DNA from: Mobula hypostoma
Taxonomy: Eukaryota
DNA: 64,000 nucleotides
Assembly (NCBI RefSeq): GCF_963921235.1
Contig: NC_086108.1
Coordinates: 48,548,001 to 48,612,000 of the forward strand
Direction: 5' to 3'
Shown: positions 6,130-61,643 of the stretch, piece after piece
Layout of the letters: each line of letters begins with the position of its first letter
Numbering within the stretch: position 1 is the first letter of the stretch
The notes under the pieces: generated by a model
Told to the model about the DNA's origin: nothing
The model's database searches: none
Seen by the model: only the letters and a program-made list of their open reading frames with translations
Position numbers and translations under genes: made by a program

Positions 6130-8585
6130 CCATGCTCAGTGATCTTTGGCTCCTAAGGAAGAATGAGGACTTGATGGGTAGGAGCTAAAGGGCTGTAGTC
6201 ACTCCTAATTGCAGGAGGCAGATAGCTGGATGGCTGTCAGGAGAGGGGAAGTGAATAGGAGGCCAGTGCAGGGTGCCTATGTGGCCATTTTCCTCAATAA
6301 TAAGTACGTATACCACTTTCGGTACTGGGGGCGATGACTTATTGGGGGAAGGTGCAGAGATCAGGACTCTAACACTGAGTCTGGCGCTGTAGCTCAGAAG
6401 GGGCCAGGGGAGAAGAGAAGTGCTGCGGTGATGGGGGACTCCATAGTTAGAGGAACAGACAGGAGATTCTATGGATGAGAAAGAGACACCCGGATGGTAT
6501 GTTGCCTCCCGGGTGCCAGGGTCAAGGATATCTTAAACTGGGTTCACAGCATTCTATATGGGGAGAGTGAACAACCAGAAGTCACAGTACGTATTGGCTC
6601 CAATGACATAGGTAGGAAAAGGGCGGGGGGAGGTCTTGAAGAGAGAATATAGGGAGTTAGGTAGAAAGCTGAAAAGCAGGACATCCAGGATAGTAATTCT
6701 GGATGCTGCCCATGCCACGCACCAGTGAGCATAAGAATAGGATGATTTGGAGGAATTGGTGTGGGGCAGAGTTCCATATTTCTGGATTATTGGGTTCCCT
6801 CCCGGGGAAGGACCTGTATAAAAAGGACACGTTACACCTGAACCCAAGGGGGACTGATATCCTTGTGGACAGGTTTGCTAGAGCCGTTGGGGAAGGTTTA
6901 AACTATTTAGGCAGGGGATGTGAACCGAAGTAATAAGACTGAGGACGGGTCAGTAGGTATACAAGTAGATGCAGTGTGTTGTGAGACTGTGAAGAAGGAC
7001 AGGCAGATGATAGGACAAAATTGGGAAGAGCTGAAGAGTAACATGGGAGCAAAATAAAGAAGGGTGATTAATCCAGGACCAGGACTGAAGGTGTTATATT
7101 TGAATGCATGCTGTATATGGAATGATGTAGATGTATTGTGGCTGAAAGAAGATTGTATTTTGGAGCTTAACATCCAGGGATACATAATGTATCGAAAGTT
7201 CAGACAGTTAGGTAGAGAGGGTGGGATAGGTCTGTTGGTAAAAAAAATGCAATCAAATCCATAGAAATGGGTGACATCAGATCAGAAGATGTGGAATCCT
7301 TGTAGACAGAGTTAAGAAACTGCAAGAGTTAAAAAGCCCTGATGGGAGTTATATACAGGCTTCCAAACAGTAGCCAGGATGTGGGATACAAATTACAACA
7401 GGAGAGAGAAAAGGCATGTAAAAAGGGCAATGTTACAATAATCATAGGGATTTTAATATATAGGTCGATTGGGTGCTGGAAGCCAAGAGATGGAATTTAT
7501 AGAATACCCAGGAGATGGCATTTTAGAGCTGCCTGTGGTTGAGCCCACCAGCAGAAAGGTAATTCTGGAATGGGTATTGTGTAATGAACCAGATTTGTTT
7601 AGGGAGCTTAGGGTAAAGGAACCCTTAGGAGGAATTCTACAGTGATAGAATTCATCCTGTAGTTTGAAAGGGAAAAGCTAAAATCAGATGTATCAGTATT
7701 TCAGTGGAGTAAAGGAAATTACAGAGGTACGAAAGAGGAGCTGGTCAAAGTTGATTGGAAGGGGACACTAGAAGAGCAGGTAGTGTTGTGGAAGCAGGGA
7801 GCCTGCAGAAGGCCTTAGACCAACTGTGAGAATGGGCAAAGAAGTGAAAGATGTAATATAGTGTCGGGAAGGGTATGGTCATGCATTTTGGTAGAAGGAA
7901 TAAATAATATTTTCTAAATGGGGAGAAAATTCAAAAATCAAAGACGCAAAGGCACTTGGGAGTCCTTTGCGGGATTCCCTAAAGGGTAACTTGCAAGTGG
8001 AGTTAGTGGTAAGGACGATAAATGCAATATTAGCATTCATTTCAAGAGGACCAGAATATAAGAGCAAGGTGTAATACTGAGGCTTTATAAAGCATTGGTC
8101 AGACCACACTTGGAGTAATGCAAGTAGTTTTCGGCCCCTTATCTAAGAAAGATGTGCTGGCATTGGAAAGGGTCCAGAGGAGTTTAACAAGAATGATTCC
8201 TGGAATGAAAGGATTAATGCATGAGGAGCATTTGATGTCTCCTAGCCTGTACTCACAGCAGTTTAGAAGAATGAGGGAAGATCTCATTGTAAACTATCAA
8301 ATATTGAAAAGTCTAGTTAGAGTGGATGTGGAGAGGATGTTTCCTATAGTGGGTGAGTCTAGGACCAGAGGGCACAACCTCAGAATAGAGAGACGTCCAT
8401 TTCAAATGTGTATATTTAAAGCGAAGGTTGATAAGTTCTTGATTAGTAGGGTATCTAAGGTTACAGGGTGAAGGTAGGAGAATGAGGTTGAGAGTGATAA
8501 TAAATCAGTCATGATGGAATGGCAGAGCAGATTCGATGGGTCAAATGGCTTAATTCTGCTCCTTGGTCTTATGTTTTATGGTCAA
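6130..8585 (+). mobile_element. Old, internally deleted CR1 LINE (decayed SGNH-esterase ORF1, endonuclease, RT C-terminus, 3' UTR)
   Basis: Remnants VMGDSIVRGTDRRF, CCLPGARVKDI, KKDTLHLNPRG, LKVLYLNA, GVIYRLPNSS and LERVQRSLTRMIPG, colinear with the element at 49453-54143. Many stops; most of the RT is missing after about 7770. Confidence 0.9.
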
Positions 8586-22388: not shown

Positions 22389-22390
22389 AT

Positions 22391-22404: not shown

Positions 22405-22428
22405 GCCCAAACGATATTTGGACCAGAG

Positions 22429-25017: not shown

Positions 25018-25235
25018 TTTTTTTTATATAATTTTTATTGAATTTTCAAAAAGAATACATGAAAAGATAAAATCTACCCACCCCCCCATATATGTAGTCT
25101 ACCTAAAAGAAAGAAGAGAAAAAAAAAGAGCCGCCTGGGTATTGGAAGGTTTCCACATGCTCCATGGGATTCAAAATAAATTTGGTATAATTATTCGTTA
25201 TTTTCCCCAAGTAACCAAATTCTTTGTCGGAGCAC

Positions 25236-29015: not shown

Positions 29016-29466
29016 TATTCTTAACAAAGTTACTCCAATCTAAAATATTACTTATCTTCTCAACTCTCATAGTTCCTTGGGGAATCACTTTAAACTTCAC
29101 CATGATGCTATGTGTTCCCCCCCTCCAACCTTCCAGGCAAAAAGAGAAAAAAAAGAAAAAACAAAATACCCCCCCACTAATGTTGTGAATGAAAAGATAC
29201 ACAACACTACCCCCCTCCATTTTACGGGTTGCGGCAAAAGCCACGCTTGCACACATGATTAACGTAGCAATCGATCAGTGCTTCTTCCAGCTCCCCCGCA
29301 ACAAAAAAAAAGTTATATATATATAAACAAAATTAGTATTATTATTCCCAGCTAATTTCCTCCAGTATTAACCTTTCTTACCCCCCTCATATAATTAATA
29401 CTATATTTATACATTCATCCAGCTTCAAAAATCCAACAAATCCATTCTTAAACCCAATCTTCATCT

Positions 29467-29831
29467 TCAATCTATCTCCCTCTCGTGAGTTTGTTCTTGT
29501 ATCTGGTGAATATTCAGAGAATCTTGCACAAACTGCTCTGCTTTCTGGTAGTCATCAAAAAATCTTTTTTCTCCACCAGACAAAAAAATCTTCAAAGTTG
29601 CAGGATAACGCAGTATAAATTGATAATCATGCTCCCATAGGGTTTTTTCCACTGGATTAAACTTCTTCCTTTTCTTCAAAAGTTCGTAACTTATATCAGG
29701 GTAGAAAAAAACTCTTTTCTCTTTAATTATCAATGGCCCTTTTCTATCTTTGGCAGCTTGAACAGCCACCTGTAGAATCCTTTCCTTGTCTTGAAATCTT
29801 AAGAATTTTATTAAAATCGATCGTGGATATT
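29467..29831 (-). pseudogene. L1 ORF1 3' part (RRM end and C-terminal domain)
   Basis: YPRSILIKFLRFQDKERIL..VFFYPDISYELLKKRKKF..LRYPATLKI. Confidence 0.9.
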
Positions 29832-29932
29832 AACATAGAAACATAGAAACATAGAAAATAGGTGCAGGAGTAGGCCATTCGGCCCTTCGAGCCTGCACCG
29901 CCATTTATTATGATCATGGCTGATCATCCAAC

Positions 29933-32434: not shown

Positions 32435-32439
32435 CCATT

Positions 32440-33375
32440 CTAGTTTAAAGTCACCTCAGTAGCCCCCGCTAATCTCCCTGCCAGGATATTGGTCCCCCGA
32501 GGATTTAAGTGTAACCCGTCCTTTTTGTACAGGTCACACCTGCGCCAAAAGAGGTCCCAATGATCCAAAAACTTGAATCCCTGCCCCCTGCTCCAATCCC
32601 TCAGCCACGCATTTATCCTCCACCTCATCGCATTCCTACTCTCACTGTCGCGTGGCACAGGCAGTAATCCCGAGATTACTACCTTTGCGGTCCTTTTTCT
32701 CAACTCCCTTCCTAGCTCCCTATATTCTTCTTTCAGGACCTCATCCCTTTTCCTACCTATGTCATTGGTACCTATATGTACCAGGACCTCTGGCTCTTCA
32801 CCCTCCCACTTCAGGATATCTTGGACACGATCAGAAATATCCCGGACCCTGGCACCAGGGAGGCAAACTACCATCCGAGTCTCTGGACTGCGTCCACAGA
32901 ATCGCCTATCTGACCCCCTTACTATCGAGTCCCCTATCACAACTGCCCTCCTCTTCCTTGCCCTACCCTTCTGAGCTACAGGGCCAGACTCTGTGCCGGA
33001 GGCAGGGCCACTGTCGCTTCCCCCGGGTAAGCTGTCCCCCCCAACAGTACTCAAACAGGAGTACCTGTTGTTAAGGGGCACAGCCGCCGGGGTACTCCCC
33101 ATCACCTTCCTTTTCCCCTTCCCCCTCCTAACCGTGACCCACTTGTCTGCCTCCCGTGGCCCCGGCGTGACCACCTGCCTTCCACTCCTCTCTATCACCT
33201 CCTCACTCTCCCTGACCAGACGAAGGTCATCGAGCTGCAGCTCCAGTTCCGTAACGCGGTCCCTTAGGAGCTGCATCTCGATGCACTTGGCGCAGATGTA
33301 GACGTCCGGGAGGCTTGGAGACTCCAGGGCCTCCCACATCCGACACCGAGAACAGCAAACTGCCCTCACAGTCAT
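32440..33375 (-). CDS. CR1 ORF1, copy 1: Cys zinc-finger, coiled coil and SGNH esterase
   Basis: CCSRC..CAKC, LRDRVTELELQL, GDSIV, GTND, DGLH. Confidence 0.92.
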   Translation of the reverse strand: MTVRAVCCSRCRMWEALESPSLPDVYICAKCIEMQLLRDRVTELELQLDDLRLVRESEEVIERSGRQVVTPGPREADKWVTVRRGKGKRKVMGSTPAAVPLNNRYSCLSTVGGDSLPGGSDSGPASGTESGPVAQKGRARKRRAVVIGDSIVRGSDRRFCGRSPETRMVVCLPGARVRDISDRVQDILKWEGEEPEVLVHIGTNDIGRKRDEVLKEEYRELGRELRKRTAKVVISGLLPVPRDSESRNAMRWRINAWLRDWSRGQGFKFLDHWDLFWRRCDLYKKDGLHLNPRGTNILAGRLAGATEVTLN

Positions 33376-33780
33376 AATGCCCCTCTCCTCAAATAGCAAC
33401 AGAAAATGAATGTCAAACCTTCCTCGCCTCACCCGCTTCCGCCTAAGCCCGGTGAGCCGAAGCCCTTAAGTCTTCACTCTGCTCCCGGCTCACTCCGCCG
33501 CCCGCAAACTACGCTGCCCGCTCTATGAGGCTCTGTTCCTTTTAAATCTGCCGCGCTGCACTGCCCTACGTCACACGCCTGCGCAGTCCCGCCTCTCAGA
33601 AAGCCGTTGGAGAAAAAAAAATAACGAAAATTTCAAAAATCTCTTTTTCGGCACTCCCACTCAGACTCTCAGACTCCTTCTTCAAATCAAATCCGAAGCA
33701 GGATGTCTGCCCTTTTAAATCTGCCGCGCTGCACTGCCCGACGTCACACGCCTGCGCAGTCCCGCCTCTCAGAAAGCCGT

Positions 33781-34403
33781 CATCTTTTGGTTTTGGTCTT
33801 AAAGCTCTATGTGCCCGCTCAATTTCAATTGATCGAGCCTCCTCTCCCATTTGCAAAACATCCGGGATCCATCTTTGAAAAAATTCTATTGGCTTATCTC
33901 CTTCCATACCTTCTGGAAGACCAACAATTTTTATATTATTACGTCTACTGAAATTTTCCAACATGTCCACTTTCTCCAAGTCGGTTTCTTTCCGAGTTCC
34001 AGACAAGCAAATCATTTTCTGTTTTTTCCACTCTATCATTCATAAGCCCCATTGCTCTTTCCATCTTCTGAAGTTTCTTTTCCATTTTGTCCTGTCTTTC
34101 CATAACTTTATTATAGCATCTCTTCGTATCTCTAAGCTCTTCTCTTACTTTCCTTAATTCAGCCATTGATCGCAATACAGCCTCTCTTATGTCTCTATCA
34201 TCTCCTTTACTTCCACTCGCTTCCAATTCTTCCTCCTCTTCTTCATCTGTGTTCTCTGCAGAATCCAGTTCTGACTCTGAGTCATTTTCAATTGAAGTGG
34301 GTGTCGGTTCTTGTAGTTTGCGTTGTGTCGATTTGCGCATGCGCTCCTCTTTGCGCATGCGCAATTCCGTTGTCTTCTTCGGAGCAACCTCTGCCACCAC
34401 CAT
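33781..34403 (-). pseudogene. L1 ORF1 5' part (acidic tract, coiled coil, RRM start); frameshift near 33985
   Basis: MVVAEVAPKK..EEEEEE..; LENFSRRNNIKIVGLPEG..IEIERAHRAL. Confidence 0.9.
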
Positions 34404-34449
34404 TGCTCCCTGTTCTACCGAAGGAGATCCAGAGAGGACCCTACTATGT

Positions 34450-35587
34450 GACGTAGCTACTGGCCAACCCCGCCCCGTCATCCCAGCAGCCTGGCGCCGG
34501 CGGGTTTTCGAGTCCATTCACAACTTAGCGCATCCCTCCATCAGGACAACCGTCCAGCTGGTCTCCAACAGGTTGGTGTGGCATGGACTTCGTAAGCAGG
34601 TCAGTGAATGGGCCAGAACGTGCATGCAGTGCCAAACGGCCAAGGTGCAGCGGCACACCAAGGCTCCGACGCAGCAGTTCGAACCCACCCGCCGGAGGTT
34701 CGACCACATTCATGTGGATATCGTGAGGCCCCTGCCAGTGTCACGAGGAGCGCGGTACCTCCTAACTATGATAGACCGGTTCACCAGATGGCCAGAGGCC
34801 ATCCCGCTCACCAACACCACCTCCGAATCCTGCGCCCGAGCACTGATCGCAACCTGGGTAGCACGCTTTGGGGTACCGGCCCACATTACCTCCGACAGGG
34901 GCACCCAGTTCACCTCCAGCCTGTGGTCGGCTATGGCCAGCCTTTTAGGAACACAGCTACACCACACAACTGCCTACCACCCACAGTCGAACGGACTAGT
35001 GGAGCGCTTCCACCGTCACCTGAAATCGGCTCTCATGGCCCGCCTGGAGGGGCCTAACTGGGTGGACGAACTTCCCTGGGTCCTGCTCGGAATCCGCACG
35101 GCGCCCAAGGAGGATCTACACACCTCGTCGGCCGAGTTGGTGTATGGCACGCCCCTGGTCGTCCCAGGAGAGTTCATACCAGCCCCAAGGGGGCAAGAGG
35201 AAGAACCCACAGCAGTCCTGGACAGACTACGAGAGAGGCTCGGTAACCTGGCCCCCATACCCACTTCACAGCACGGACAGAGTCCGACCTGCGTACCCAA
35301 AGACCTGCAGAACTGTAAGTTTCTTTTTGTACGACGGGGCGGACACCGGGCACCGCTACAGCGGCCCTACGAGGGACCGTTTAAGGTGATCGGGAACAAC
35401 GGGTCCACGTTTGTGCTGGACATTGGGGGGAGAGAGGAGGTTTTCACAGTGGACCGACTCAAACCGGCCCATGTGGACTTGGCGCAACCGGTCCAGGCTC
35501 AGGCACCGCGACGCAGGGGCAGACCTCCCAAACAGAGGCCGATCCAGACTGTGGACATTGGGGGAGGTATCGCCGGTTCTGGGTTCT
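34450..35587 (+). pseudogene. Gypsy integrase (HHCC, DDE core, GPY/F module); continuation of pol after the L1
   Basis: HNLAHP..CMQC, IHVDIV, ITSDRGTQF, SNGLVERFH, PYEGPFKV, VDRLKPAH. Confidence 0.95.
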
Positions 35588-35604
35588 GGGGGGGGGGGTG
35601 GTTA

Positions 35605-35890
35605 TGTGGCGACCCACTTTCTGGCACACACAAACCGGCTCACAACAGCGCGCGCAGGCAGGGGGGCCGGCAGCAAAAAGGGCACCAGGCCATCTTCACC
35701 AGCAGGGGGGAAATCCCGCGCGCAGAAAGGGTCTGGGAATATACATTCCCCACAGTAGTCCCGCCCAGGGAGGGCGGGAACAGGAAGGCTTTAAAGCGGG
35801 CCGCGAAGTTTGAATAAATCTCTTTCATCGCAACTCTAACTCACCGACTCCGTGTGGTTATTCTAGCGCTGTGTGTAGCACATCGCTACA
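35605..35890 (+). repeat. Gypsy 3' LTR (286 bp), preceded by a poly-G PPT (35588-35601)
   Basis: Direct repeat of 22104-22388, followed by the AGCT TSD. Confidence 0.97.
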
Positions 35891-41549: not shown

Positions 41550-44104
41550 TGTCATGGGGGGGGGGCGCTGGGAGCGGACCCAAATGCAAGACACAGACAC
41601 TGAAGTACTAGGAAGAGGACTAGGTGTGTCAAGAAAGCAAGGGAAGTGGGGAAGAAATGATACTGGACAAGACACAGGCCCTGGACAAGGCTAGGATACA
41701 GGGCCTGGGCTAGGACTAGACTAGGAAAGCAGGACCTGGACGAGGAACTAGGAACTTGGAACCCGGACAAGGACACCGAGCCAGAGACTGGACAGGGGCC
41801 CGGAACCTGGTGGGCTCAGACCCCGGATCTAGGTGAGGACAAGACGTGGCTACAGGATGAGGAGTGGCAACAGGACTAGACGTGAGACTTCTGGACAGGA
41901 CGAGGGAACCCCAGCACCGGGCTGGGTGAGGTACTCCTAGGCTGCGTGACACACACGGACAGGACAAGAACACGAAGCCTTGACTTGGTCGAGGGAGACA
42001 GGAACGCAGAGCCTCGGCCTTGAGGGGGACAGGAACGCAGAGCCTCAGTTTGGAGAGGACAGAAACACAGAGGCTTGGTCGAGGGGGACAGGAACTTGGA
42101 ACACAGAGCCGGGACCCCTCCTTGAAAGCAGGATGTAGGGCCAGGACTCATACACAGAATATTGAGAGACAGATCTCCACTCAAGGTAGTGGCCAATGGC
42201 CGGACCTGCCCAGCGGAGGCAAGGGCACAAAGAGACAGTTCACAACACAAGGTAGCGGCAAACAGCTGGACCTACCTAGCAAAGGCATTGACACAGAGAC
42301 AGTTCCCAACTCAAGGTAGCAGCAAATGGCCGGACCTACCTAGCAAAGGCGAGGACACAAAGAGACAATTCCAAACAATGAAAGACAGTTCCTTATCTAG
42401 ACACAGCAAGGCCCCGATCTTGCCCTGGCGGTTGAACCTGACAGCATTGCAGGCGAGGCTTCAGAAGGAAAGGGAAGGGGAGGGAACAGTCCAGCAACTG
42501 AAGCTGAACCCAGGAGTTGTTTATGTAGCCAGCCCAAAATTAGAATCACGTGCCTCAGTTGAGGTACACAACAGGACAAGGGAAAACCAGAAAACCTGGA
42601 ACAAGGATCGACAGACCGGACCGTGAACCAGAATGCAGACTTCACAGATCGGACCATGACAGTATCCGCCCCTCTTCTATGGGAGCCTCCTGGTGACAGA
42701 ACAGGCTCTCCAGGACAAAGGACAACACGGGTGGGTGGGGGGGGGCATTCAACAGGAGGGAACCTAGGATTGCAAGAGTAAAATGACAGTGTCGGTGTCA
42801 CTAGGTCCATATTTGACTGGACTGCTCTGTCATGGGGGGGGGCGCTGGGAGCGGACCCAAATACAAGACACGGACACTGAAGTACTAGGAACAGGACTAA
42901 GTGTGTCAAGAAAGCAAGGGAAGTGGGGAAGAAATGATGCTGGACAAGACACAGGCCCTGGACAAGACCAGGATACAGGGCCTAGGCTAGGACAAGATTA
43001 GGAAAGCGAGACCTGGACGAGGAACAAGGAACTTGGAACCTGGACAAGGACTCCGAGCCGGAGATTGGACAGGGACCCGGAACCGAGTCTTGACTCTGGC
43101 TCGGACCCCGTATCTAGGTTAGGACAAGACGTAGCTACAGGACGAGGAGTGGCAACAGGACTGGACATGAGACTCCTGAACAGGATTAGGGAACCCCAGC
43201 ACTGGGCTAGGTGAAGTACTCCTGGGCTGGGTGAGGCACATGGACAGGACAAGAACACGAAGCTTTGACTTGGTCGAGGGAGACAGGAACGCAGAGCCTT
43301 GGTCGAGGGGGACAGGAATGCAGAGCCTTGGTCATGAGAGAACAGGAACATGGAACACAGAGCCAGGACCCGTCGTTGGGAACAGGACTTGGGGCCAGGG
43401 CTCAACACAGAGTCATCACCCTTCCTAGGGAGCAGGATGTAGGGCTGGGACTCATACACAGAACACTGAGAGATAGATCTCCACTCAAGGTAGCGGCAAA
43501 TGGCCGGACCTACCCAGCAGAGGCGAGGGCACGAAGAGACGGTTCCCAACACAAGGTAGCGGCAAACGGCCAGACCTACCTAGCGAAGGCGTGGACACAG
43601 AGACAGTTCCCAACTCAAGGTAGCGGCAAACGGCTGGACCTACCTAGCGAAGGTGTGGATACAGAGACAGTTCCCAACTCAAGGCAGCGGCAAACAGCCC
43701 AATCTACCTCGCGAAGGCGAGGACACAAAGAGCCAGTTCCATACAATGGAAGACAGTTTCTTATCTAGACACAGCAAGGCCCTGATCTCACCCTGGCAGT
43801 TGAACCTGACGGCATTACAGGCAAGGACACAGGCGAAGGTAGCAGGCGAGGTTTCAGGCGAAGGTAGCAGGTGAGGCTTCAGGTGAAGTTAGCAGGCGAG
43901 GCTTCAGAAGGAAGGGGAAGGGAAAGGAACAGTCCAGCAACTGAAGCTGAACCCAGGAACTGTTTATGTAGCCAGCCCAAAATGAGAATCGTGTGGCTCA
44001 ATTAAGGCACACAACAGGACAAGGGAAAACCTGAAAACCTGGAATAAGGATCAATGGACCAGACTGTGAACTGGAATGCGAACTTCATGGACCGGACCAT
44101 GACA
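41550..44104 (-). mobile_element. Non-autonomous sushi/Tf1-type LTR retrotransposon: LTRs 42828-44104 (5') and 41550-42661 (3'), 166-bp internal region
   Basis: Both LTRs run TGTCATG...CATGACA; 5-bp TSD TAAAC (41545-41549, 44105-44109). Minus-strand PPT AGAAGAGGGGCGGATAC; gag-start vestige ATGGACCTAG. Confidence 0.93.
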
Positions 44105-48168: not shown

Positions 48169-49452
48169 TGCAATAGGTGGAAATACATGCATAATTCGCA
48201 ATCATTGAGTTGGAGTTAAGAGGCTGGTCTGACGTGATGACATGAAGATTTTACTGCGCCTTATGTTCTATGTTTGGTTGACAATAAGAGTGAATTGTTA
48301 CAATTTCCCTTAAACGTAAAACACCTCCATCGTTTTACTTGCAAAAACTTACATTGGTGACCCCGATGCTCTAGGACGATTCCAGTGTTATTCAGTGTGT
48401 CGGCCAGTGCAGTCACTTTGAGACCGCTGGAGTTTTGGGAGCAAAATGCCGTCACTTGGCTTGTACAAAGCAAGGCCCAATTCATGCTGCAAGAAATCTC
48501 CACGGATAACACTAGATATTATTACATAGTAGTGTCACTGCGTGGTTCCATGGCCATAAGAGTGGTGAGTCTGATTGAACACCAGCCAGAAATCGAAAAA
48601 TATCGCATGCTGAAAACTCACCTCTCACAGTCTTTTGGACTCTCAGAGTCTGAACACACCACAAAGTTGCTCTGAGGGTTTTCCCTGATGGATGAGTGGT
48701 GGCATGATCATCTCCTATGAGTCCTGCTGGGGCTCAGAACGGCCCCAAAAGAGGACCAGCTGTAGGCCAGGGCTGAGTGAGTATATGGACAGCCATTAGG
48801 AGTGCCTTGTGATTTTATTCCTGACATCACAACGGCCTGGTTGTCCTCTCAACAGCATTCCATCCTCCTCAGTAAACTCATCCTTCTGCGTGTATTTCTA
48901 CCTCCCATCATGGCACTAGGCACTGTTGGGTTCATATTGACCTACACTCTGCCTTGTTCATTTTCATCCGCCATGATGCACATCCCCTTAGGCCCCCTTA
49001 TGATGGCCTGTTCCACATTTTGGAACAGAGAGAAAAGACTTTTATCATAGATAGGAGGGGTCATCCTGAATGGATTTCAGTAGATTGCCTTAAACCGGCC
49101 CACAAAAAGTTGGAAGACTTCACTACCATTCCCCTAGCATCGTAACATGACCTGAGCATGAGGACAAGCCAGAGGCACCTGCTGTTACTCCATCCATGGA
49201 ACACAGGACATAGGACCCAAGCCAGGCAGCTTATCTGAGCTCCAGACAGGGTAATGTAACGGCTGGAAACATATGCATAATTCACAACCACCAACATTGA
49301 GTTGGATTCACGTTAACAGGCCAGTCTGATGTGATGATGTAATGGTGTGGTTTTTTCTGCGCTTTACGTTCTGTGTTTGACAATAAAAGTGAGTAGTTAT
49401 GGTTGCTCTTGACGTTATGACAGCTCTCCCATTTTATTTGCGAAAACCTACA
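48169..49452 (+). mobile_element. Old, internally deleted Gypsy element (LTRs about 48169-48353 and 49255-49452; tRNA-Trp PBS; gag start fused to integrase end)
   Basis: Diverged direct repeats ending in TACA; TGGTGACCCCGA at 48355; EFWEQNAVTWLVQSKAQF; LLGLRTAPKED; PPYDGLF..VDCLKPAH. Confidence 0.85.
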
Positions 49453-49941
49453 GAAGAAGGAGTCTGAGAGTCTGAGTGGGAGTGCCGAGAAAGAGATTTT
49501 TGAAATTTTCGTTATTTTTTTTCTCCAACGGCTTTCTGAGAGGCGGGACTGCGCAGGCGTGTGACGTCGGGCAGTGCAGCACGGCAGATTTAAAAGGGCA
49601 GACATCCTGCTTCGGATTTGATTCGAAGAAGGAGTCTGAGAGTCTGAGTGGGAGTGCCGAGAAAGAGATTTTTGAAATTTTCGTTATTTTTTTTCTCCAA
49701 CGGCTTTCTGAGAGGCGGGACTGCGCAGGCGTGTGACATCGGGCAGTGCAGCGCGGCAGATTTAAAAGGGCAGACATCCTGCTTCGGATTTGATTCGAAG
49801 AAGGAGTCTGAGAGTCTGAGTGGGAGTGCCGAGAAAGAGATTTTTGAAATTTTCGTTATTTTTTTTCTCCAACGGCTTTCTGAGAGGCGGGACTGCGCAG
49901 GCGTGTGACGTCGGGCAGTGCAGCGCGGCAGATTTAAAAGG
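49453..49941 (+). repeat. 172-bp tandem monomer array (about 2.8 units) at the CR1 5' end
   Basis: Units start at 49453, 49625 and 49797 and are almost identical. Confidence 0.97.
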
Positions 49942-50103
49942 AACAGAGCCTCAGAGAGCGGGCAGCGTAGTTTGCGGGCAGCGGAGTGAGCCAGGAGCAG
50001 GGTGAAGACTTAAGGGCTTCGGCTCACCGGGCTTAGGCGGAAGCGGGCGAGGTGAGGAAGGTTTGACATTCATTTTCTGTTGCTATTTGAGGAGAGGGGC
50101 ATT

Positions 50104-51039
50104 ATGACTGTGAGGGCAGTTTGCTGTTCTCGGTGTCGGATGTGGGAGGCCCTGGAGTCTCCAAGCCTCCCGGACGTCTACATCTGCGCCAAGTGCATCG
50201 AGATGCAGCTCCTAAGGGACCGCGTTACGGAACTGGAGCTGCAGCTCGATGACCTTCGTCTGGTCAGGGAGAGCGAGGAGGTGATAGAGAGGAGTGGAAG
50301 GCAGGTGGTCACGCCGGGGCCACGGGAGGCAGACAAGTGGGTCACGGTTAGGAGGGGGAAGGGGAAAAGGCAGGTGATGGGGAGTACCCCGGCGGCTGTG
50401 CCCCTTAACAACAGGTACTCCTGTTTGAGTACTGTTGGGGGGGACAGCTTACCCGGGGGAAGCGACAGTGGCCCTGCCTCCGGCACAGAGTCTGGCCCTG
50501 TAGCTCAGAAGGGTAGGGCAAGGAAGAGGAGGGCAGTTGTGATAGGGGACTCGATAGTAAGGGGGTCAGATAGGCGATTCTGTGGACGCAGTCCAGAGAC
50601 TCGGATGGTAGTTTGCCTCCCTGGTGCCAGGGTCCGGGATATTTCTGATCGTGTCCAAGATATCCTGAAGTGGGAGGGTGAAGAGCCAGAGGTCCTGGTA
50701 CATATAGGTACCAATAACATAGGTAGGAAAAGGGATGAGGTCCTGAAAGAAGAATATAGGGAGCTAGGAAGGGAGTTGAGAAAAAGGACCGCAAAGGTAG
50801 TAATCTCGGGATTACTGCCTGTGCCACGCGACAGTGAGAGTAGGAATGTGATGAGGTGGAGGATAAATGCGTGGCTGAGGGATTGGAGCAGGGGGCAGGG
50901 ATTCAAGTTTTTGGATCATTGGGACCTCTTTTGGCGCAGGTGTGACCTGTACAAAAAGGACGGGTTACACTTAAATCCTAGGGGGACCAATATCCTGGCA
51001 GGGAGATTAGCGGGGGCTACTGAGGTGACTTTAAACTAG
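50104..51039 (+). CDS. CR1 ORF1: zinc-finger, coiled coil and SGNH esterase (311 aa from the ATG)
   Basis: CCSRC..CAKC, VVIGDSIVRG, HIGTNN, KDGLHLN. Confidence 0.93.
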   Translation: MTVRAVCCSRCRMWEALESPSLPDVYICAKCIEMQLLRDRVTELELQLDDLRLVRESEEVIERSGRQVVTPGPREADKWVTVRRGKGKRQVMGSTPAAVPLNNRYSCLSTVGGDSLPGGSDSGPASGTESGPVAQKGRARKRRAVVIGDSIVRGSDRRFCGRSPETRMVVCLPGARVRDISDRVQDILKWEGEEPEVLVHIGTNNIGRKRDEVLKEEYRELGRELRKRTAKVVISGLLPVPRDSESRNVMRWRINAWLRDWSRGQGFKFLDHWDLFWRRCDLYKKDGLHLNPRGTNILAGRLAGATEVTLN

Positions 51040-51044
51040 AATGG

Positions 51045-54044
51045 TTGGGGGGTGGGAATCAAATTAAAGAGGCTAGGTGTGAGGAGGTTAGTTCACAACA
51101 GAGGGATGGGAACCAGTGCAGAGAGACAGAGGGGTGTAAAGTGAGCGTAGAAGCAAAAAGTACAAAGGGGAAAAGTAAAAGTGGCAGGCCGACAAATCCA
51201 GGGCAAGCATTAAAAAGGGCTAAGAGAGTTGTAAAAGAGTGCCTGAAGGCTTTATGTGTCAATGCAAGGAGCATTCGTAATAAGGTGGATGAATTGAAAG
51301 TGCAGATTGTTATTAATGATTATGATATAGTTGGGATCACAGAGACATGGCTCCAGGGTGACCAGGGATGGGAGCTCAACGTTCAGGGATATTCAATATT
51401 CAGGAGGGATAGACATGAAGGAAGGGGAGGTGGGGTGGCGTTGCTGGTTAAAAAAGAGATTAACGCAATAGAAAGGAAGGACATAAGCCGGGAAGATGTG
51501 GAATCGATATGGGTAGAGCTGCGTAACACTAAGGGGCAGAAGACGCTGGTGGGAGTTGTGTACAGGCCACCTAACAGTAGTAGTGAGGTCGGAGATGGTA
51601 TTAAACAGGAAATTAGAAATGTGTGCAATAAAGGAACAGCAGTTATAATGGGTGACTTCAATCTACATGTAGACTGGGTGAACCAAATTGGTAAAGGTGC
51701 TGAGGAAGAGGATTTCTTGGAATGTATGCGGGATGGTTTTTTGAACCAACATGTCGAGGAACCGACTAGAGAGCAGGCTATTCTGGACTGGGTTTTGAGC
51801 AATGAGGAAGGGTTAATTAGCGATCTTGTCGTGAGAGGCCCCTTGGGTAAGAGTGACCATAATATGGTGGAATTCTTCATTAACATGGAGAGTGACGTAG
51901 TTAATTCAGAAACAAAGGTTCTGAACTTAAAGAGGGGTAACTTTGAAGGTATGAGTCGTGAATTAGCTAAGATAGACTGGCAAATGACACTTAAAGGATT
52001 GACGGTGGATATGCAATGGCAGGCATTTAAAGGTTGCATGGATGAACTACAACAATTGTTCATCCCAGTTTGGCAAAAGAATAAATCAAGGAAGGTAGGG
52101 CACCCGTGGCTGACAAGAGAAATTAGGGATAGTATCAATTCCAAAGAAGTAGCATACAAATTAGCCAGAGAAAGTGGCTCACCTGAGGACTGGGAGAAAT
52201 TCAGAGTTCAGCAGAGGAGGACAAAGGGCTTAATTAGGAAGGGGAAAAAAGATTATGAGAGAAAACTGGCAGAGAACATAAAAACGGACTGTAAAAGCTT
52301 TTATAGATATGTAAAAAGGAAAAGACTGATAAAGACAAATGTAGGTCCCCTGCAAACAGAAACAGGTGAATTGATTATGGGGAGCAAGGACATGGCAGAC
52401 CAATTGAATAATTACTTTGGTTCTGTCTTCACTAAGGAGGACATAAATAATCTTCCAGAAATAGTAAGGGACAGAGGGTCCAGTGAGATGGAGGAACTGA
52501 GCGAAATACATGTTAGTAGGGAAGTGGTGTTAGGTAAATTGAAGGGATTGAAGGCAGATAAATCCCCAGGGCCAGATGGTCTGCATCCCAGAGTGCTTAA
52601 GGAAGTAGCCCAAGAAATAGTGGATGCATTAGTGATAATTTTTCAAAACTCGTTAGATTCTGGACTAGTTCCTGAGGATTGGAGGGTGGCTAATGTAACC
52701 CCACTTTTTAAAAAAGGAGGGAGAGAGAAACCGGGGAATTATAGGCCGGTTAGCCTAACGTCGGTGGTGGGGAAACTGCTGGAGTCAGTTATCAAGGATG
52801 TGATAACAGCACATTTGGAAAGCGGTGAAATGATCGGACAAAGTCAGCATGGATTTGTGAAAGGAAAATCATGTCTGACGAATCTCATAGAATTTTTTGA
52901 GGATGTAACTAGTAGAGTGGATAGGGGAGAACCAGTGGATGTGGTATATTTGGATTTTCAAAAGGCTTTTGACAAGGTCCCACACAGGAGATTAGTGTGC
53001 AAACTTAAAGCGCACGGTATTGGGGGTAAGGTATTGGTGTGGGTGGAGAATTGGTTAGCAGACAGGAAGCAAAGAGTGGGAATAAACGGGACCTTTTCAG
53101 AATGGCAGGCGGTGACTAGTGGGGTACCGCAAGGCTCAGTGCTGGGACCCCAGTTGTTTACAATATATATTAATGACTTGGATGAGGGAATTAAATGCAG
53201 CATCTCCAAGTTTGCGGATGACACGAAGCTGGGTGGCAGTGTTAGCAGTGAGGAGGATGCTAAGAGGATGCAGGGTGACTTGGATAGGTTGGGTGAGTGG
53301 GCAAACTCATGGCAGATGCAATTTAATGTGGATAAATGTGAAGTTATCCACTTTGGTGGCAAAAATAGGAAAACAGATTATTATCTGAATGGTGGCCGAT
53401 TAGGAAAAGGGGAGGTGCAACGAGACCTGGGTGTCATTATACACCAGTCATTGAAAGTGGGCATGCAGGTACAGCAGGCGGTGAAAAAGGCGAACGGTAT
53501 GCTGGCATTTATAGCGAGAGGATTCGAGTACAGGAGCAGGGAGGTACTACTGCAGTTGTACAAGGCCTTGGTGGGACCACACCTGGAGTATTGTGTGCAG
53601 TTTTGGTCCCCTAATCTGAGGAAAGACATCTTTGCCATAGAGGGAGTACAAAGAAGGTTCACCAGATTGATTCCTGGGATGGAAGGTCTTTCATATGAAG
53701 AAAGACTGGATGAACTGGGCTTGTACTCGTTGGAATTTAGAAGATTGAGGGGGGATCTGATTGAAACATATAAGATCCTGAAGGGATTGGACAGGCTAGA
53801 TGCGGGAAGATTGTTCCCGATGTTGGGGAGGTCCAGAACGAGGGGTCACAGTTTGAGGATAGAGGGGAAGCCTTGTAGGACCGAGATTAGGAAAAACTTC
53901 TTCACACAGAGAGTGGTGAATCTGTGGAATTCTCTGCCACAGCAAACTGTTGAGGCCAGTTCATTAGCTATGTTTAAAAGGAAGTTAGATATGGCCCTTG
54001 TGGCTACAGGGGTCAGGGGGTATGGAGGGAAGGCTGGGTTCTGA
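51045..54044 (+). CDS. CR1 ORF2: APE endonuclease and reverse transcriptase (frame open from 51024; no AUG before the endonuclease)
   Basis: VNARS, ITETWL, GDFN, SDH; NYRPVSL, YLDFQKAFD, GVPQGSVLGP, KFADDTK, RDLGV. Confidence 0.95.
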   Translation: MGGGNQIKEARCEEVSSQQRDGNQCRETEGCKVSVEAKSTKGKSKSGRPTNPGQALKRAKRVVKECLKALCVNARSIRNKVDELKVQIVINDYDIVGITETWLQGDQGWELNVQGYSIFRRDRHEGRGGGVALLVKKEINAIERKDISREDVESIWVELRNTKGQKTLVGVVYRPPNSSSEVGDGIKQEIRNVCNKGTAVIMGDFNLHVDWVNQIGKGAEEEDFLECMRDGFLNQHVEEPTREQAILDWVLSNEEGLISDLVVRGPLGKSDHNMVEFFINMESDVVNSETKVLNLKRGNFEGMSRELAKIDWQMTLKGLTVDMQWQAFKGCMDELQQLFIPVWQKNKSRKVGHPWLTREIRDSINSKEVAYKLARESGSPEDWEKFRVQQRRTKGLIRKGKKDYERKLAENIKTDCKSFYRYVKRKRLIKTNVGPLQTETGELIMGSKDMADQLNNYFGSVFTKEDINNLPEIVRDRGSSEMEELSEIHVSREVVLGKLKGLKADKSPGPDGLHPRVLKEVAQEIVDALVIIFQNSLDSGLVPEDWRVANVTPLFKKGGREKPGNYRPVSLTSVVGKLLESVIKDVITAHLESGEMIGQSQHGFVKGKSCLTNLIEFFEDVTSRVDRGEPVDVVYLDFQKAFDKVPHRRLVCKLKAHGIGGKVLVWVENWLADRKQRVGINGTFSEWQAVTSGVPQGSVLGPQLFTIYINDLDEGIKCSISKFADDTKLGGSVSSEEDAKRMQGDLDRLGEWANSWQMQFNVDKCEVIHFGGKNRKTDYYLNGGRLGKGEVQRDLGVIIHQSLKVGMQVQQAVKKANGMLAFIARGFEYRSREVLLQLYKALVGPHLEYCVQFWSPNLRKDIFAIEGVQRRFTRLIPGMEGLSYEERLDELGLYSLEFRRLRGDLIETYKILKGLDRLDAGRLFPMLGRSRTRGHSLRIEGKPCRTEIRKNFFTQRVVNLWNSLPQQTVEASSLAMFKRKLDMALVATGVRGYGGKAGF

Positions 54045-55059
54045 GTTGGATGATCAGCCATGATCATAATAAATGGCGGTGCAGGCTCGAAGGGCCGAAT
54101 GGCCTACTCCTGCACCTATTTTCTATGTTTCTATGTTTCTATGTATATTTTCCAGTGCAAACTAAATTGTGGGTGTAAGTAGTACTTCTCACCCATTTTC
54201 TTCAGGAATCCCCTGGCCTTCCATCATATCTGAGTGCAGATCAGTGGGACTAGGTAAGAGAAAGCATTCGGTATGGTCTACAAGGGCCGAGATGGCCTGT
54301 TTCTGTGCTGTAATTGTTATATGGTTATATCTATTGGAACTTCTAAAAGTTAATCACAGTGTCATCTACATTGAAGGGACTAACAATCACAAATTCTCTG
54401 AAGTTGTACTTCCTTTCTCTTAGCAAAGCCATTGAATCTAAAAAATTATAATGCTTTCCCAGTTTGGGGAAGAGCTGCTACTAACACCAAAGGCACTGCA
54501 TTTTTTAAGCAGGAGTATGGATCAATAGGAATGTTGTTATGAATAAATAGGAATTAAACAGAAAATGTTGTTACGCCTAACTATGAGAAGGTTATTTTAT
54601 ATCGTGCTTACTTAAGTTGGAGTTGGACTGTGTTGCAGCAATTAAACGTTTAGACTAGAGGTTCCCAACTTGGGTTTCTCAGACCCCTTGCTTATTGGTA
54701 TTGATCCATGGTATAAAAAAGGGTTGGGAACCCCTGTTTTAGGCTCTCTCTCTCTCTGTCTGGCACTCTTTATGGGAACTCTGCAATATGAATGGGCTTT
54801 TATGGTAAATTATATGGAGGTTTTAATAGTAGGTTTTCACATTTCCCCATCAAGTCACTCTGTCCACTTGTATGTAAATTCACCTGTTCAAAATAATTGA
54901 ATAAATTATGTCTCTGCTCCATTGTTAAGGACATAAGAAATGGGAACTGCATCCACATAATCTTTCAAGCATATTCTATCATTCAAAAGATCTTGGCTGG
55001 TTCTTTGACCTCAACTCCACTTTCCCATCAATCCCCACATTAATTTTAATCAAATTGAC

Positions 55060-59089: not shown

Positions 59090-59225
59090 TGTGTAAATAT
59101 ACTGTTGTTGCATTAATGACATTTTTATAATTAAATTTGTTCCTTTGGTAGAACTTCTTGAAGATGGCTGTTGGTGGAAAATGGAAGTGTTGAAACTTGG
59201 AAGCAGGATTTTCTTTACATACATC

Positions 59226-61643
59226 ATGGTGAAGATGACTCTGTTGGTGGCAATTGTTGCATTAACTTATCTTTCCGCACCTGCTACTTGTGTAACATCA
59301 AAGAAGGTAGAAACATTTTTAGTGAATTGTTCGGGGATTAGATATCCACTTTCTCCTTGTACCCTGGGCTCAGACACAGTGAAGTTGGATCTCTCCCACA
59401 ACAACATCAAAACGATTCAACAGCAGAACTTCCAAAATCTTACCAAGCTGAAAGTTTTGTTTCTTCAGTTCAATTGGATCGCAACAATAGAACCTGGATC
59501 ATTTGCAAAAAATTCAGAACTACAGTATCTTGATCTTTCAAATAATCTTCTGCATGATATTTCAGTCTTGCCATTTACCAATCTCCAATCAATAAGACAC
59601 TTGGATATTACCAACAATAGGTTTGAAACAGCTCACTTTGGAGCAGAGATTAGCAGGTTGCAGAAGCTACACACTTTACGTTTTGGAAATTCTAGGCTAT
59701 ATTCTCTGAATTCGAGTTCCTTATTTGCCCTTCATGCAATCCAAATTAAGGAGATCTATTTGATCACTGGAGAGCTGCGGACATATGAACCTGGAACACT
59801 CAGTATGATACAAAGCATGGAAAAACTTTCTTTAGATTTACAGTTTGGGCAGCAACCACAATTATTGATTAATATTTTCAAGGATATTCCAATAACGACA
59901 ACCACATTAGAAATCCTAAATACCGATCTGGCCAAATATGGTAATAATGTAGATCTGTTCTTCCCTTTAAGCACATCAAATGTTTCCACATTAATTGTAA
60001 AGAATATTTCCATCACTGATTCTTTGGCTATTTATTTCTTTAATGGTGTCCTAAGCTCAAAAATAAGAGACTTATATTTGCACACTATTACAATGAATGG
60101 CATTGGCAATTGGAACATACAGGCTGTACCAGTAGAGAAGGTTAATTTGCGTAGAATTTCTATAACTGATGTTTCTAATCCAAATTTCTATAAATTTTAC
60201 TCACTTTCTTATTTAATTGATCTATTTTCACAACTTCGGGAGCTAACAATAACTGAGGGGAGTTTGTTCTATGTTCCATGTGCAGTAACAGAAATTTTGG
60301 CTTTTTTAACATATTTGGACGTATCTTCCAACTTACTTCAAGTATCCACCTTAATTCCTGAAACATGTTCAACTCCTTTACCCAGTCTTAAAACCCTCAT
60401 TCTAAACAGGAACAAATTTACAAATCTACAACAACTCAGCAGGATGACAACCAGGTTAAGGAGCTTGTCCAATATAAGTGTTACTCATAATGATGTATTC
60501 CTGCCAAATGGAGTGACTTGCGCATGGCTTCAAACAGTGAAACGTATAGATTTATCACACAATAGATTGGAAGAAAATGTGTTTGAATGTTTGCCAGAAT
60601 CACTGGAATCTTTAGACTTAAGTTATAACTCCATCGCCACTGTGCCAAACCTCAAGACACTGAAAGATCTCCAGGAAATATTTTTGACAGGAAATGTCAT
60701 TGCATCTTTACCTGAAATCACAGGTCATTCACTGAAAACTGTGCATATTGACTACAATAAAATAACCAATATAAATGTAGGCTTATTGCAGTCCTGGAAT
60801 CTAACAGAGGTGAAATTGAGCAATAACCCTTTTGAATGTTTCTGTTCAATTCAGTCTTTCTCCAATTATGTTCAACAAACAAATACCAAGGTTCTTAACT
60901 GGCCTGATCAGTATGAATGTTATGTTCCACTGAAATTCAGAAATGGAGTTATCAAATATCTGAAATTTTCTCCCATTGAATGCAACATCCCCTTATTTAT
61001 TGGGCTCCTCATGACATGTGTAGCACTTATAGTGGCTGTATGTGTTATTTTGTGTATGAAATATAAAGTCACCTGGTATATACGTACACTTTGGCTTTGG
61101 CTCAAGGCTAAAAGAAATCTAGATGTCAGCCAGATTCAAAACAATTATGAGTTCAATGCTTTTATTTCATACAGTGAACATGATGCCTTATGGGTGAAGA
61201 ACAAATTGCTGGTACAGCTAGAGAACAATGATCCACCATATCGTATCTGCATCCACGAAAGAGATTTCAAACCTGGAAAGCCAATCATTACTAATATCAT
61301 TGACTGCATATCAAAAAGCTACAAAACCATCTTTATCCTGTCAAAACACTTTGTGCAAAGTGAATGGTGCCACTATGAATTTTTCTTTGCCCACCAACAG
61401 GTATTTGATTATAGGAAGGATAGTCTTATCCTGCTCCTGTTGGAACCAATCCCAAAGAATTCTATTCCAGATCGATTCTGTAAACTGAGGAAGCTGATGA
61501 ATCGCAACACCTACCTGGAGTGGCCCCAGAATGAGTTTCAACAGGGGTTCTTCTGGAGAAGATTGAAAGCTGTCCTAAACTTGGATTTCCATTCAAATTG
61601 TTCTAGAAGAGAGCATAATAAGGCGGGCCAATTAGATCCATAA
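59226..61643 (+). CDS. Toll-like receptor, TLR1 family (TLR1/6/10/14/18/27 group; TLR27-like candidate), CDS in one exon; alternative in-frame ATGs at 59181 and 59235
   Basis: Signal peptide MVKMTLLVAIVALTYLSAPATC; LRRs (LDLSHNNI, LDLSNNLL, LDLSYNSI); LRRCT NPFECFC; TM segment; TIR NAFISYS, ICIHERDFKPGK, FVQSEWCHYE, TYLEWP..FW. Acceptor tttggtag| at 59151. Confidence 0.95.
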   Translation: MVKMTLLVAIVALTYLSAPATCVTSKKVETFLVNCSGIRYPLSPCTLGSDTVKLDLSHNNIKTIQQQNFQNLTKLKVLFLQFNWIATIEPGSFAKNSELQYLDLSNNLLHDISVLPFTNLQSIRHLDITNNRFETAHFGAEISRLQKLHTLRFGNSRLYSLNSSSLFALHAIQIKEIYLITGELRTYEPGTLSMIQSMEKLSLDLQFGQQPQLLINIFKDIPITTTTLEILNTDLAKYGNNVDLFFPLSTSNVSTLIVKNISITDSLAIYFFNGVLSSKIRDLYLHTITMNGIGNWNIQAVPVEKVNLRRISITDVSNPNFYKFYSLSYLIDLFSQLRELTITEGSLFYVPCAVTEILAFLTYLDVSSNLLQVSTLIPETCSTPLPSLKTLILNRNKFTNLQQLSRMTTRLRSLSNISVTHNDVFLPNGVTCAWLQTVKRIDLSHNRLEENVFECLPESLESLDLSYNSIATVPNLKTLKDLQEIFLTGNVIASLPEITGHSLKTVHIDYNKITNINVGLLQSWNLTEVKLSNNPFECFCSIQSFSNYVQQTNTKVLNWPDQYECYVPLKFRNGVIKYLKFSPIECNIPLFIGLLMTCVALIVAVCVILCMKYKVTWYIRTLWLWLKAKRNLDVSQIQNNYEFNAFISYSEHDALWVKNKLLVQLENNDPPYRICIHERDFKPGKPIITNIIDCISKSYKTIFILSKHFVQSEWCHYEFFFAHQQVFDYRKDSLILLLLEPIPKNSIPDRFCKLRKLMNRNTYLEWPQNEFQQGFFWRRLKAVLNLDFHSNCSRREHNKAGQLDP

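Follow-up and report, generated by a model that had tools for sequence, protein, structure and literature searches.

A candidate −1 ribosomal frameshift signal at the ORF1–ORF2 junction of esterase-type CR1 LINEs

How is the reverse transcriptase of a LINE translated when its reading frame overlaps the end of ORF1 and has no AUG for some 200 codons? This question is raised by a young CR1 element of the ray Mobula hypostoma (NC_086108.1), which lies in a 64-kb stretch of DNA that we refer to as the window and whose first letter is position 1 in all coordinates below. In the literature searched, which did not extend to the founding CR1 papers, we found neither a description of how CR1 reverse transcriptase is expressed nor a report of frameshifting in CR1. 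The original prediction, made from the letters of the window, was that −1 frameshifting fuses ORF1, endonuclease and reverse transcriptase into a protein of about 1,310 amino acids. This is supported by conservation of the junction, by an open −1 linker and by the lack of a conserved ORF2 start codon, none having been found across the 22 lineages that we compared. We thus consider it very likely (a probability of roughly 0.85) that esterase-type CR1 LINEs make ORF2 by programmed −1 ribosomal frameshifting, the predicted ORF1–endonuclease–reverse transcriptase fusion being 1,313 amino acids long in this element.

Architecture of the element and its junction

The features on which the argument draws are as follows.

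49453..49941, + strand: tandem monomers of the 5′ UTR, 172 bp in 2.8 copies (repeat analysis)
50104..51039, + strand: ORF1, 311 aa, with a C-terminal SGNH/GDSL esterase and the end ...TLN-stop (profile match to 4C1B, E 4.5e-42)
50539..50985, + strand: SGNH esterase domain, PF13472, aa 146–294 of ORF1 (Pfam)
51024..54044, + strand: ORF2, −1 frame, 1006 codons stop to stop, comprising a linker of ~70 codons, APE endonuclease and reverse transcriptase
51030..51036, + strand: slippery heptamer U_UUA_AAC in ORF1 phase (sequence, lineage alignment)
51037..51039, + strand: ORF1 stop UAG, adjoining the heptamer (sequence)
51037..51046, + strand: 10-nt spacer from heptamer to G run, stop included (lineage alignment)
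51041..51067, + strand: AUG mini-ORF in the +1 frame, 8 aa, present in this lineage only among those compared
51047..51052, + strand: G run, G6 in this element, a candidate linear 3′ stimulator (lineage alignment)
51300..51860, + strand: APE endonuclease domain, PF03372, ORF2 aa 93–279 (Pfam)
52719..53372, + strand: reverse transcriptase domain, PF00078, ORF2 aa 566–783 (Pfam)
54116..54144, + strand: 3′ terminal 8-bp tandem repeat, CTATGTTT, 3.8 copies (repeat analysis)
32440..32449, − strand: heptamer and stop of copy 1, same family, in an element at ~29830–33780 with an in-frame deletion in the reverse transcriptase region
6897..6906, + strand: heptamer in a decayed member of an older CR1 family, its stop now TAT

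The assignment to CR1 follows from three features: an ORF2 in which an APE endonuclease precedes the reverse transcriptase and RNase H is absent (PF03372, PF14529 and PF00078 are the only Pfam domains), an SGNH esterase in ORF1, and 8-bp repeats at the 3′ end. Short 8-bp tandem repeats in place of poly(A) are a CR1 trait, and the same period recurs at the 3′ end of copy 1 (29832–29861). The ORF1 frame runs from stop to stop over 50056–51039 with its first ATG at 50104, and its N-terminus reads as a CxxC...CxxC motif with a heptad-like segment; upstream, the 172-bp monomers probably serve as the internal promoter. Esterases are one of the ORF1 types of the CR1 clade, and the ORF1 of zebrafish ZfL2-1 (PDB 4C1B) carries a C-terminal SGNH esterase as the ray element does (PMC3905857); this likeness is one of the proteins, and the words 'frameshift' and 'translation' do not occur in that paper. 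ORF2 shares 34–45% identity with elements that have an ORF1 most similar to a hummingbird protein. The ray family itself is young, since all 40 scored matches (of 1,067 candidates) are 100% identical over 161 nt, and the −1 linker is open in 29 of 30 of its copies.

At the junction, the coordinates of the original prediction hold. ORF1 ends ACT TTA AAC TAG, with TTTAAAC at 51030–51036 in X_XXY_YYZ phase, and ORF2 overlaps it in the −1 frame, open from two codons before the heptamer. As was also claimed, the first methionine of ORF2 lies far inside, at residue 209 (nt 51648, in AVIMGDFN) after 206 codons without AUG, and the AUG at 51041 is out of frame. On mammalian ribosomes, few heptamers are as prone to shifting as U_UUA_AAC, and G_UU(A) is an accepted variant (PMC5009743). 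In the mechanism that we propose, which would operate on the one RNA of the element, most ribosomes would terminate at the UAR stop and release ORF1p with a Leu-Asn end, while a minority would slip back one base on U_UUA_AAC, tRNA-Leu re-pairing from UUA to UUU and tRNA-Asn from AAC to AAA. These ribosomes would then read CUA as Leu and continue through the linker into endonuclease and reverse transcriptase, and the frequency of the shift would set a low ORF2:ORF1 ratio in the style of gag-pol.

The two further heptamers expected in the window, in copy 1 (32443–32449, minus strand) and in the older CR1 (6897–6903), are both present and occupy the place homologous to 51030–51036; in the older family the stop is TAA in 24 of 29 sister copies. 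The bare 7-mer TTTAAAC occurs 20 times in the window against 13.9 ± 4.5 expected, a number reached by 11 of 100 shuffles. This count is not above chance, and the evidence therefore lies in position, phase and conservation.

Conservation of the heptamer and its stop

We compared 22 lineages, 9 from this genome and 13 others including bird-type elements. They were defined by clustering on the linker, the upstream sequence dividing old families too finely, and since they share ancestry the figure of 22 overstates their independence, which is nearer to four deep groups (28–45% ORF2 identity among them) plus a Penelope-like element. The heptamer is U_UUA_AAC in 21 of the 22 and G_UUA_AAC in the remaining one, and a stop follows directly in all of them (TAG in 17, TAA in 5), which the −1 frame reads as a CUA/CUG-type Leu codon.

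The synonymous positions of the heptamer, proposed earlier as a check, are fixed across very divergent lineages. The terminal Leu codon is TTA in 22/22 (background 0.17–0.23) and the terminal Asn codon AAC in 22/22 (background 0.37–0.41), and the codon before them ends in T in 21/22 while coding nine different residues (four-fold background 0.26–0.28). In the 13 other ORF1 columns that are conserved, the most frequent codon has a share of only 0.29–0.89. These figures bear on the idea that Leu-Asn is kept solely for the esterase C-terminus, codons and frame being inherited by chance. Leu-Asn does close the last predicted helix, forming the C-terminus in 85 of the 92 ORF1 homologues that reach this helix among the 120 matches listed, and those named come from rays, sharks, coelacanth, sturgeon, Xenopus, turtles, squamates and a hummingbird. 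The codons nevertheless never change, in contrast to those of other conserved Leu, Asn and Gly residues, which vary freely; the pattern has a chance of about 0.02 per independent lineage, and ORF2 would be left with no entry route; this idea is thus largely refuted, and we regard it as extremely improbable. At the protein level, 1 of 45 residues before Leu-Asn lacks a U-ending codon, while neighbouring positions have 3 to 17 such residues of 45, which is a weak test.

The Penelope-like element found here, with a GIY-YIG endonuclease and a weak SGNH-like ORF1, has this heptamer too, in 27 of 30 copies, with TAG after it in 26, and its reverse transcriptase is in the −1 frame. A search of viral contigs gave no relative.

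Entry into ORF2

The linker varies from ~31 to 103 codons across lineages and can barely be aligned. Summed over the 21 lineages with an endonuclease match, the −1 frame contains 6 stops against ~96 expected from the other two frames, and in 16 of the 21 the endonuclease is in the −1 frame with no linker stop. A clean −1 linker was not obtained in the other five, four of which are single decayed copies; in family A, which is among these five, 9 of 13 individual copies are in −1. In 15 of the 22 lineages, a stop closes the −1 frame 1–5 codons before the heptamer, thus bracketing entry there.

The main rival is termination-coupled reinitiation, in which ribosomes stop at UAR and restart in −1 within a few codons, using AUG if one is present and a non-AUG codon if not, giving a free ORF2p. 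It has precedents in L1, whose ORF2 is thought to use AUG-independent initiation (PMC5009743), and in SART1, which uses UAAUG (PMC2699510), and an open linker is compatible with any entry near the stop. In 4 of 22 lineages, all bird/reptile-type, a −1 frame AUG does lie at the stop, two nt after it in L121, L126 and L132 and as UAAUG in L149. The other 18, this element included, have none there; at codon 4 of the −1 frame, 3 lineages have AUG, 6 a near-cognate codon and 13 neither, and among the 16 lineages with an open linker the endonuclease is preceded by no AUG in at least 6, including the active ray family. Nor does restarting predict that U_UUA_AAC is fixed upstream of the stop, that the one tolerated change falls on its first position, or that the Penelope-like element shares it. 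We therefore judge it unlikely, although it is the most serious of the competing explanations.

Two further explanations place the event in the RNA and not on the ribosome. First, an ORF2 mRNA could arise by splicing, the motif being a 3′ splice acceptor or branch point; or the motif could be a weak polyadenylation signal (UUUAAA) that, together with a G-rich element downstream, would yield an ORF1-only mRNA. G-rich elements and UUUAAA are known in 3′-end processing, and AG stands at positions 17–18 in 16 of 22 lineages; on the other hand, the active ray family has TG there, the AG of the stop is absent in the five TAA lineages, and the lineage alignment shows no pyrimidine tract at the junction. 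Codon phase, the invariant C at position 7 and the G_UUA_AAC variant would all be unexplained, which makes RNA processing very improbable. Second, RNA polymerase II might insert an extra base at the T3 or the A3 run and so bring ORF2 into frame. Such slippage would give the same fusion and needs the same overlap, yet runs of three are too short for it and it does not require X_XXY_YYZ phase, so that we give it hardly any weight. A fused ORF1–ORF2 protein family was not seen among homologues, the six longer matches being gene models, chimeras or single shifted copies, and this is weak evidence.

The G run and comparison with known systems

A slippery heptamer with no stimulator is normally weak. 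The junction has the in-phase X_XXY_YYZ heptamer, the overlapping open −1 ORF and the synonymous-site conservation of a canonical cassette; a structured 3′ stimulator 5–9 nt downstream was not found, no stem or partner recurring with programs that do not model pseudoknots directly. The original prediction pointed to a G-rich tract as stimulator, starting ~6 nt downstream and perhaps folding as a pseudoknot or G-quadruplex. A conserved G run does exist, but it starts 10 nt after the heptamer (51047–51052 here), the GG at 6 nt being outside the conserved part, and it is a linear G5 at fixed spacing, with no conserved pseudoknot, hairpin or canonical G-quadruplex. Counted from the heptamer's first base, G5 occupies positions 18–22 in 20 of 22 lineages, which leaves a spacer of exactly 10 nt, and it is displaced by 3 nt in L128. 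Local folding downstream of the heptamer has z near 0 in this element, and across lineages the mean z is +0.04 and +0.20, none of 22 and none of 21 windows falling below −2. The three-tier G-quadruplex pattern occurs in 0 of 22 lineages; a two-tier pattern, in 9 of 22, was set aside as not conserved. Among 16 elements, no long-range partner of the G-rich segment recurred, the best duplexes being mostly within the shuffled range and in unrelated places; in this element, C5 runs are absent downstream and from the 1,100 nt upstream, and an Rfam search gave no match near gathering score.

We infer, more weakly, that the pause might come from slow termination at the abutting stop and not from an RNA fold, aided in CR1 by a factor or rRNA segment engaging G5 10 nt downstream; this is a tentative proposal. 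More speculative still is a wider scheme for the esterase-bearing retroelements of animals, in which an ancient fold-free module of U_UUA_AAC and abutting stop would be common to Penelope-like elements and to CR1 LINEs from rays to birds, and would be tuned in CR1 by a G5 at the mRNA entry channel that would bind a host G-run protein or ORF1p. The Penelope-like element has no G5. Such a scheme would amount to cellular, transposon-borne, protein-stimulated frameshifting and would tether a membrane-binding esterase to the endonuclease and reverse transcriptase.

Several of the parallels are viral. The ORF1a/1b junctions of coronaviruses and arteriviruses use the same heptamer (U_UUA_AAC in IBV) and the same position-1 variant (G_UU(A) in equine arteritis virus) with the polymerase in −1, but have a pseudoknot 5–9 nt downstream, whereas in the ray CR1 none was found, the heptamer runs straight into the stop and a linear G5 lies at 10 nt (PMC5009743). 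Pea enation mosaic virus RNA2 also has a stop near its shift site (PMC5009743), and the CR1 stop likewise varies, between TAG and TAA, yet is never lost among the 22 lineages; the viral stop is 3 nt away and accompanied by a structured stimulator, while that of CR1 adjoins the heptamer. The PRRSV nsp2 −2/−1 frameshift, stimulated by nsp1beta/PCBP, resembles CR1 in having a short linear motif ~10 nt past the shift site and no obvious downstream structure; its wild-type spacer is 10 nt (efficient range 9–11 nt), as is that of the CR1 G5, although the PRRSV motif is C-rich (CCCANCUCC) with known trans-factors and any factor acting on G5 is putative (PMC4937337). Among non-LTR elements, the APE-type TRE5-A and TRE3-A of Dictyostelium are said in a review to need a −1 frameshift for ORF2, which is the source of the likeness, and differ from CR1 in clade, host and ORF1 (PMC5911963). 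Human L1 and silkworm SART1 are, like CR1, two-ORF LINEs with low-level ORF2 from the same RNA, but they have no slippery overlap and make a free ORF2p by initiation or reinitiation.

The frameshift reading of CR1, drawn from sequence conservation, would be a route unlike that of the human LINE. If the fusion is true, LINEs have two or more unrelated ways of expressing ORF2 and CR1 ORF2p is annotated with the wrong N-terminus, which may explain a possible failure of ORF2-only constructs begun at an internal methionine. The CR1 signal is compact, at ~25 nt, and if stop and G5 substitute for an RNA fold, they would be a new kind of stimulator for the frameshifting field. CR1 makes up 11.8% of the chicken genome, more than any other repeat group (PMC11835228), and is also abundant in this ray.

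The CR1 junction in the window and among its homologues

We consider first the young CR1 LINE of the window, a full-length element with two ORFs, whose parts are as follows (all on the + strand).

Features of the window CR1 element
About 49450-54145: CR1 element, with 172-bp monomers at its 5' end and an 8-bp repeat at its 3' end
ORF1: 311 aa, C-terminal SGNH esterase
Open from 51024, 1006 codons: ORF2 in the −1 frame, APE endonuclease and RT
51030-51036: putative slippery heptamer, the ORF1 terminus reading ACT TTA AAC TAG
51037-51039: ORF1 stop, TAG

The original prediction, of a heptamer in phase and abutting the stop and of an open −1 frame whose first Met lies some 200 codons in, is confirmed as an observation, that Met being residue 209. 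As proposed, the out-of-frame AUG (51041) opens only a short reading frame, 8 aa in +1. A −1 slip would yield 1,313 aa, close to the fusion of ~1,310 aa envisaged. A Mobula hypostoma protein matches ORF1 at 98% identity, and the family is young, since 40 of 40 scored matches (1,067 candidates) are identical over 161 nt. The bare TTTAAAC 7-mer shows no excess in the window (20 occurrences vs 13.9 ± 4.5 expected). The tandem 172-bp monomers of the 5' UTR (49453-49941) are 99% alike and resemble the promoter monomers of rodent L1; copy 1, another member of the family in the window, has only about one. Copy 1 has also lost 166 codons in frame from its RT region (30729-30730, minus strand); a splice reading of this gap was rejected, its ends not being GT-AG.

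A homologue search with ORF1 returned 296 proteins, and analysis was carried out on the 120 matches listed, 92 of which end 22-34 residues past the last esterase motif. Among these listed matches, Leu-Asn is the C-terminus in 85/92 (the others being FR, twice, IN, NG, VN, SN and GN) and in 45 of 50 representatives at 80% redundancy. Named sources include rays, sharks, Latimeria, Xenopus, turtles, squamates and Calypte anna, with Acipenser present as a cluster member. The residue before Leu is incompatible with a U-ending codon in 1/45, vs 15 and 17 at the next two positions; several other positions give only 3 to 6 of 45, making this protein-level test a weak one. Two proteins (P0021, P0077) that the database assigns to Pseudomonas aeruginosa and Protopolystoma xenopodis are likewise esterase ORF1s of CR1 with an LN terminus, and host-DNA contamination is their probable source.

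Codon conservation and the −1 frame

At the DNA level, 180 loci were fetched from the Mobula hypostoma genome (seven queries) and 43 from a metagenome collection. Junctions were anchored on the esterase minus its last 12 residues, and the choice of loci was therefore not driven by the heptamer; 201/223 loci were anchored, 198 of them unique. The 173 own-genome copies form seven multi-copy families and two singletons and carry TTTAAAC in 143 cases, from 30/30 in the young family of the window element to 14/27 in an old family, as decay would predict. Among 25 anchored metagenome loci, 13 with a clean junction were kept, while five ended before it, one was apparently non-homologous there and five were decayed (TTTAAAC in four and TTTAAAT in one, the site being located by searching for it); one further locus, cut 5 nt past the stop, has the heptamer and TAG. 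The resulting 22 lineages comprise nine of ray, seven of bird/reptile type (ORF1 closest to Calypte or Zootoca), five of one further group, and the locus L128. Between groups, ORF2 identity is 28-45%; the lineages are related and count as about four independent groups, not 22.

Across this set the heptamer is TTTAAAC in 21/22 and GTTAAAC in one, always directly followed by the stop (TAG 17, TAA 5). The synonymous positions, for which the original prediction proposed conservation as a check, are fixed: TTA codes the terminal Leu (background 0.17-0.23) and AAC the terminal Asn (0.37-0.41) in 22/22, and T is the last base of the codon before them in 21/22, across nine amino acids, whereas at 13 other conserved ORF1 columns the modal codon reaches only 0.29-0.89. 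By codon choice alone the heptamer would arise with a chance of about 0.02 per independent lineage, and constraint on the protein only is a highly improbable account; transcriptional slippage we rate equally low. Passages of PMC5009743 rank U_UUA_AAC with the heptamers most prone to shifting, and name G_UU(A) as the variant of equine arteritis virus. Ray families O, A, B and F and locus L112 (e.g., window 6894-6903) have a second, overlapping slippery heptamer, G_GGU_UUA, one codon upstream, making tandem shift sites.

The −1 frame is closed 1-5 codons upstream of the heptamer in 15/22 lineages; it starts at the heptamer. The linker to the endonuclease, about 31-103 codons, is scarcely alignable between groups. 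Of the 21 lineages having an endonuclease match, 16 reach this domain in −1 with no intervening stop, over 827 linker codons in which 81 stops would be expected from the other frames. The remaining five are family A, in which 9/13 individual copies are −1, and four lineages of one copy each that show apparent indels; summed over all 21, there are six stops vs about 96 expected. In eight elements the frame entered at the heptamer runs on without interruption, over 953-1,039 codons in L122, L124, L128, L132, L228 and the window copy and to the contig end in L121 and L123.

The anatomy and conservation of this CR1 cassette are established, and they support the frameshift interpretation first proposed: a −1 slip at U_UUA_AAC is, on sequence grounds, the probable reading (about 85%). 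The majority of ribosomes would stop at the ORF1 end, releasing ORF1p, and some would slip, decode CUA as Leu and go on via the low-complexity linker into EN and RT. Production of ORF2p by reinitiation is unlikely. At least 6 of the 16 lineages with an open linker have no AUG ahead of the endonuclease. Speaking against the frameshift reading, a −1-frame AUG lies at the stop in 4/22, all of bird/reptile type and one as UAAUG. Because of these four, reinitiation may coexist there with frameshifting. RNA processing is less probable still. Lineage L149, which has the heptamer together with a UAAUG stop-start like that of SART1, in frame with ORF2, may be intermediate between the two mechanisms of frameshifting and reinitiation.

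The G5 run and a Penelope-like control

A G-rich stimulator was also predicted, with a pseudoknot or G-quadruplex to be sought; the G-rich element stands, as a linear one, and a structure is not supported. The window junction has no outstanding fold (z −0.4 to +0.3), mean z across lineages is +0.04 and +0.20 with none below −2, a three-tier G-quadruplex pattern is absent from all 22 (two-tier in 9/22), and no long-range partner recurs among 16 elements. Beyond the ORF1 stop, and counting the first heptamer base as 1, G occupies positions 18-22 in 22, 21, 21, 22 and 21 of the 22 lineages; 20/22 have the complete G5. Both 18 and 21 are third codon bases when read in −1 (backgrounds 0.53-0.63 and 0.31-0.37, in that order); the intervening Gly codon is less constant (20/22), which places the constraint on the RNA. 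CR1 has an unexplained linear element at the place where structure would be expected. Its spacer, 10 nt (3 nt closer in L128), equals the wild-type spacer of PRRSV, in which, according to passages of PMC4937337, 9-11 nt works and the motif is, in contrast, C-rich and protein-bound. For a role of a stop beside a shift site, pea enation mosaic virus offers a precedent (passages of PMC5009743). Stop and G5 might together form a pause signal, and G5 could conceivably bind protein or rRNA.

An outside control is provided by a second retroelement of the Mobula hypostoma genome.

L232:3355-6190 (G000:C50:463000-472000) and L233-L262: Penelope-like family

It has an RT frame, a GIY-YIG domain and a weak SGNH-like ORF (PF13472 E 7e-4, below cut-off; profile probability 12%). 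TTTAAAC stands at the ORF1 end in 27/30 copies, 26 of these having TAG, and the RT frame is −1. That two very distant retroelement types share heptamer and stop lends support to a function at the ribosome. G5 is CR1-specific and not universally required, since positions 18-22 read ACAAA in 29/30 of these copies. Many of the copies listed lie near contig ends, and the family may prefer telomere-near sites.

Earlier reports and neighbouring features

No paper proposing CR1 frameshifting was found in the part of the full-text literature covered, outside which lie the founding CR1 papers and Repbase/Dfam. Turtle CR1 has reportedly been described with overlapping ORFs, and a passing earlier mention is possible. 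In the passages covered, PMC5009743 has LINE ORF2 arise by unusual initiation and does not contain 'CR1', PMC3905857 and PMC2817409 do not contain 'frameshift', PMC4255032 has frameshifts of the decay type only, PMC11835228 gives CR1 two ORFs, PMC5408684 bears out the presence of esterases in elements of the CR1, L2, RTEX and Neptune-like kinds with no CR1 frameshift, and PMC8915115 has nothing on LINEs. PMC5911963 states −1 frameshifting for the Dictyostelium non-LTR elements TRE5-A and TRE3-A, and PMC5405496 gives +1 frameshifting or reinitiation for those of Paramecium. This kind of recoding is known elsewhere, and here it would concern a major vertebrate LINE clade.

The window also holds nested insertions (22312-35817): the outermost is an LTR element of Gypsy type (+), with DUF7041, RT, RNase H and integrase, and within it sits an L1-like element (−; about 25236-34517), in whose ORF1 CR1 copy 1 is inserted. 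A calcium-binding EGF-like coding stretch (8924-9067, +) is presumably an exon of a hemicentin/fibulin-type gene. Several tandem arrays of 25-130 bp, grouped in two similar blocks, occupy 41987-43907, and a Toll-like receptor (59097-61643, +; LRR and TIR) is encoded by a single long ORF of 848 codons, stop to stop.
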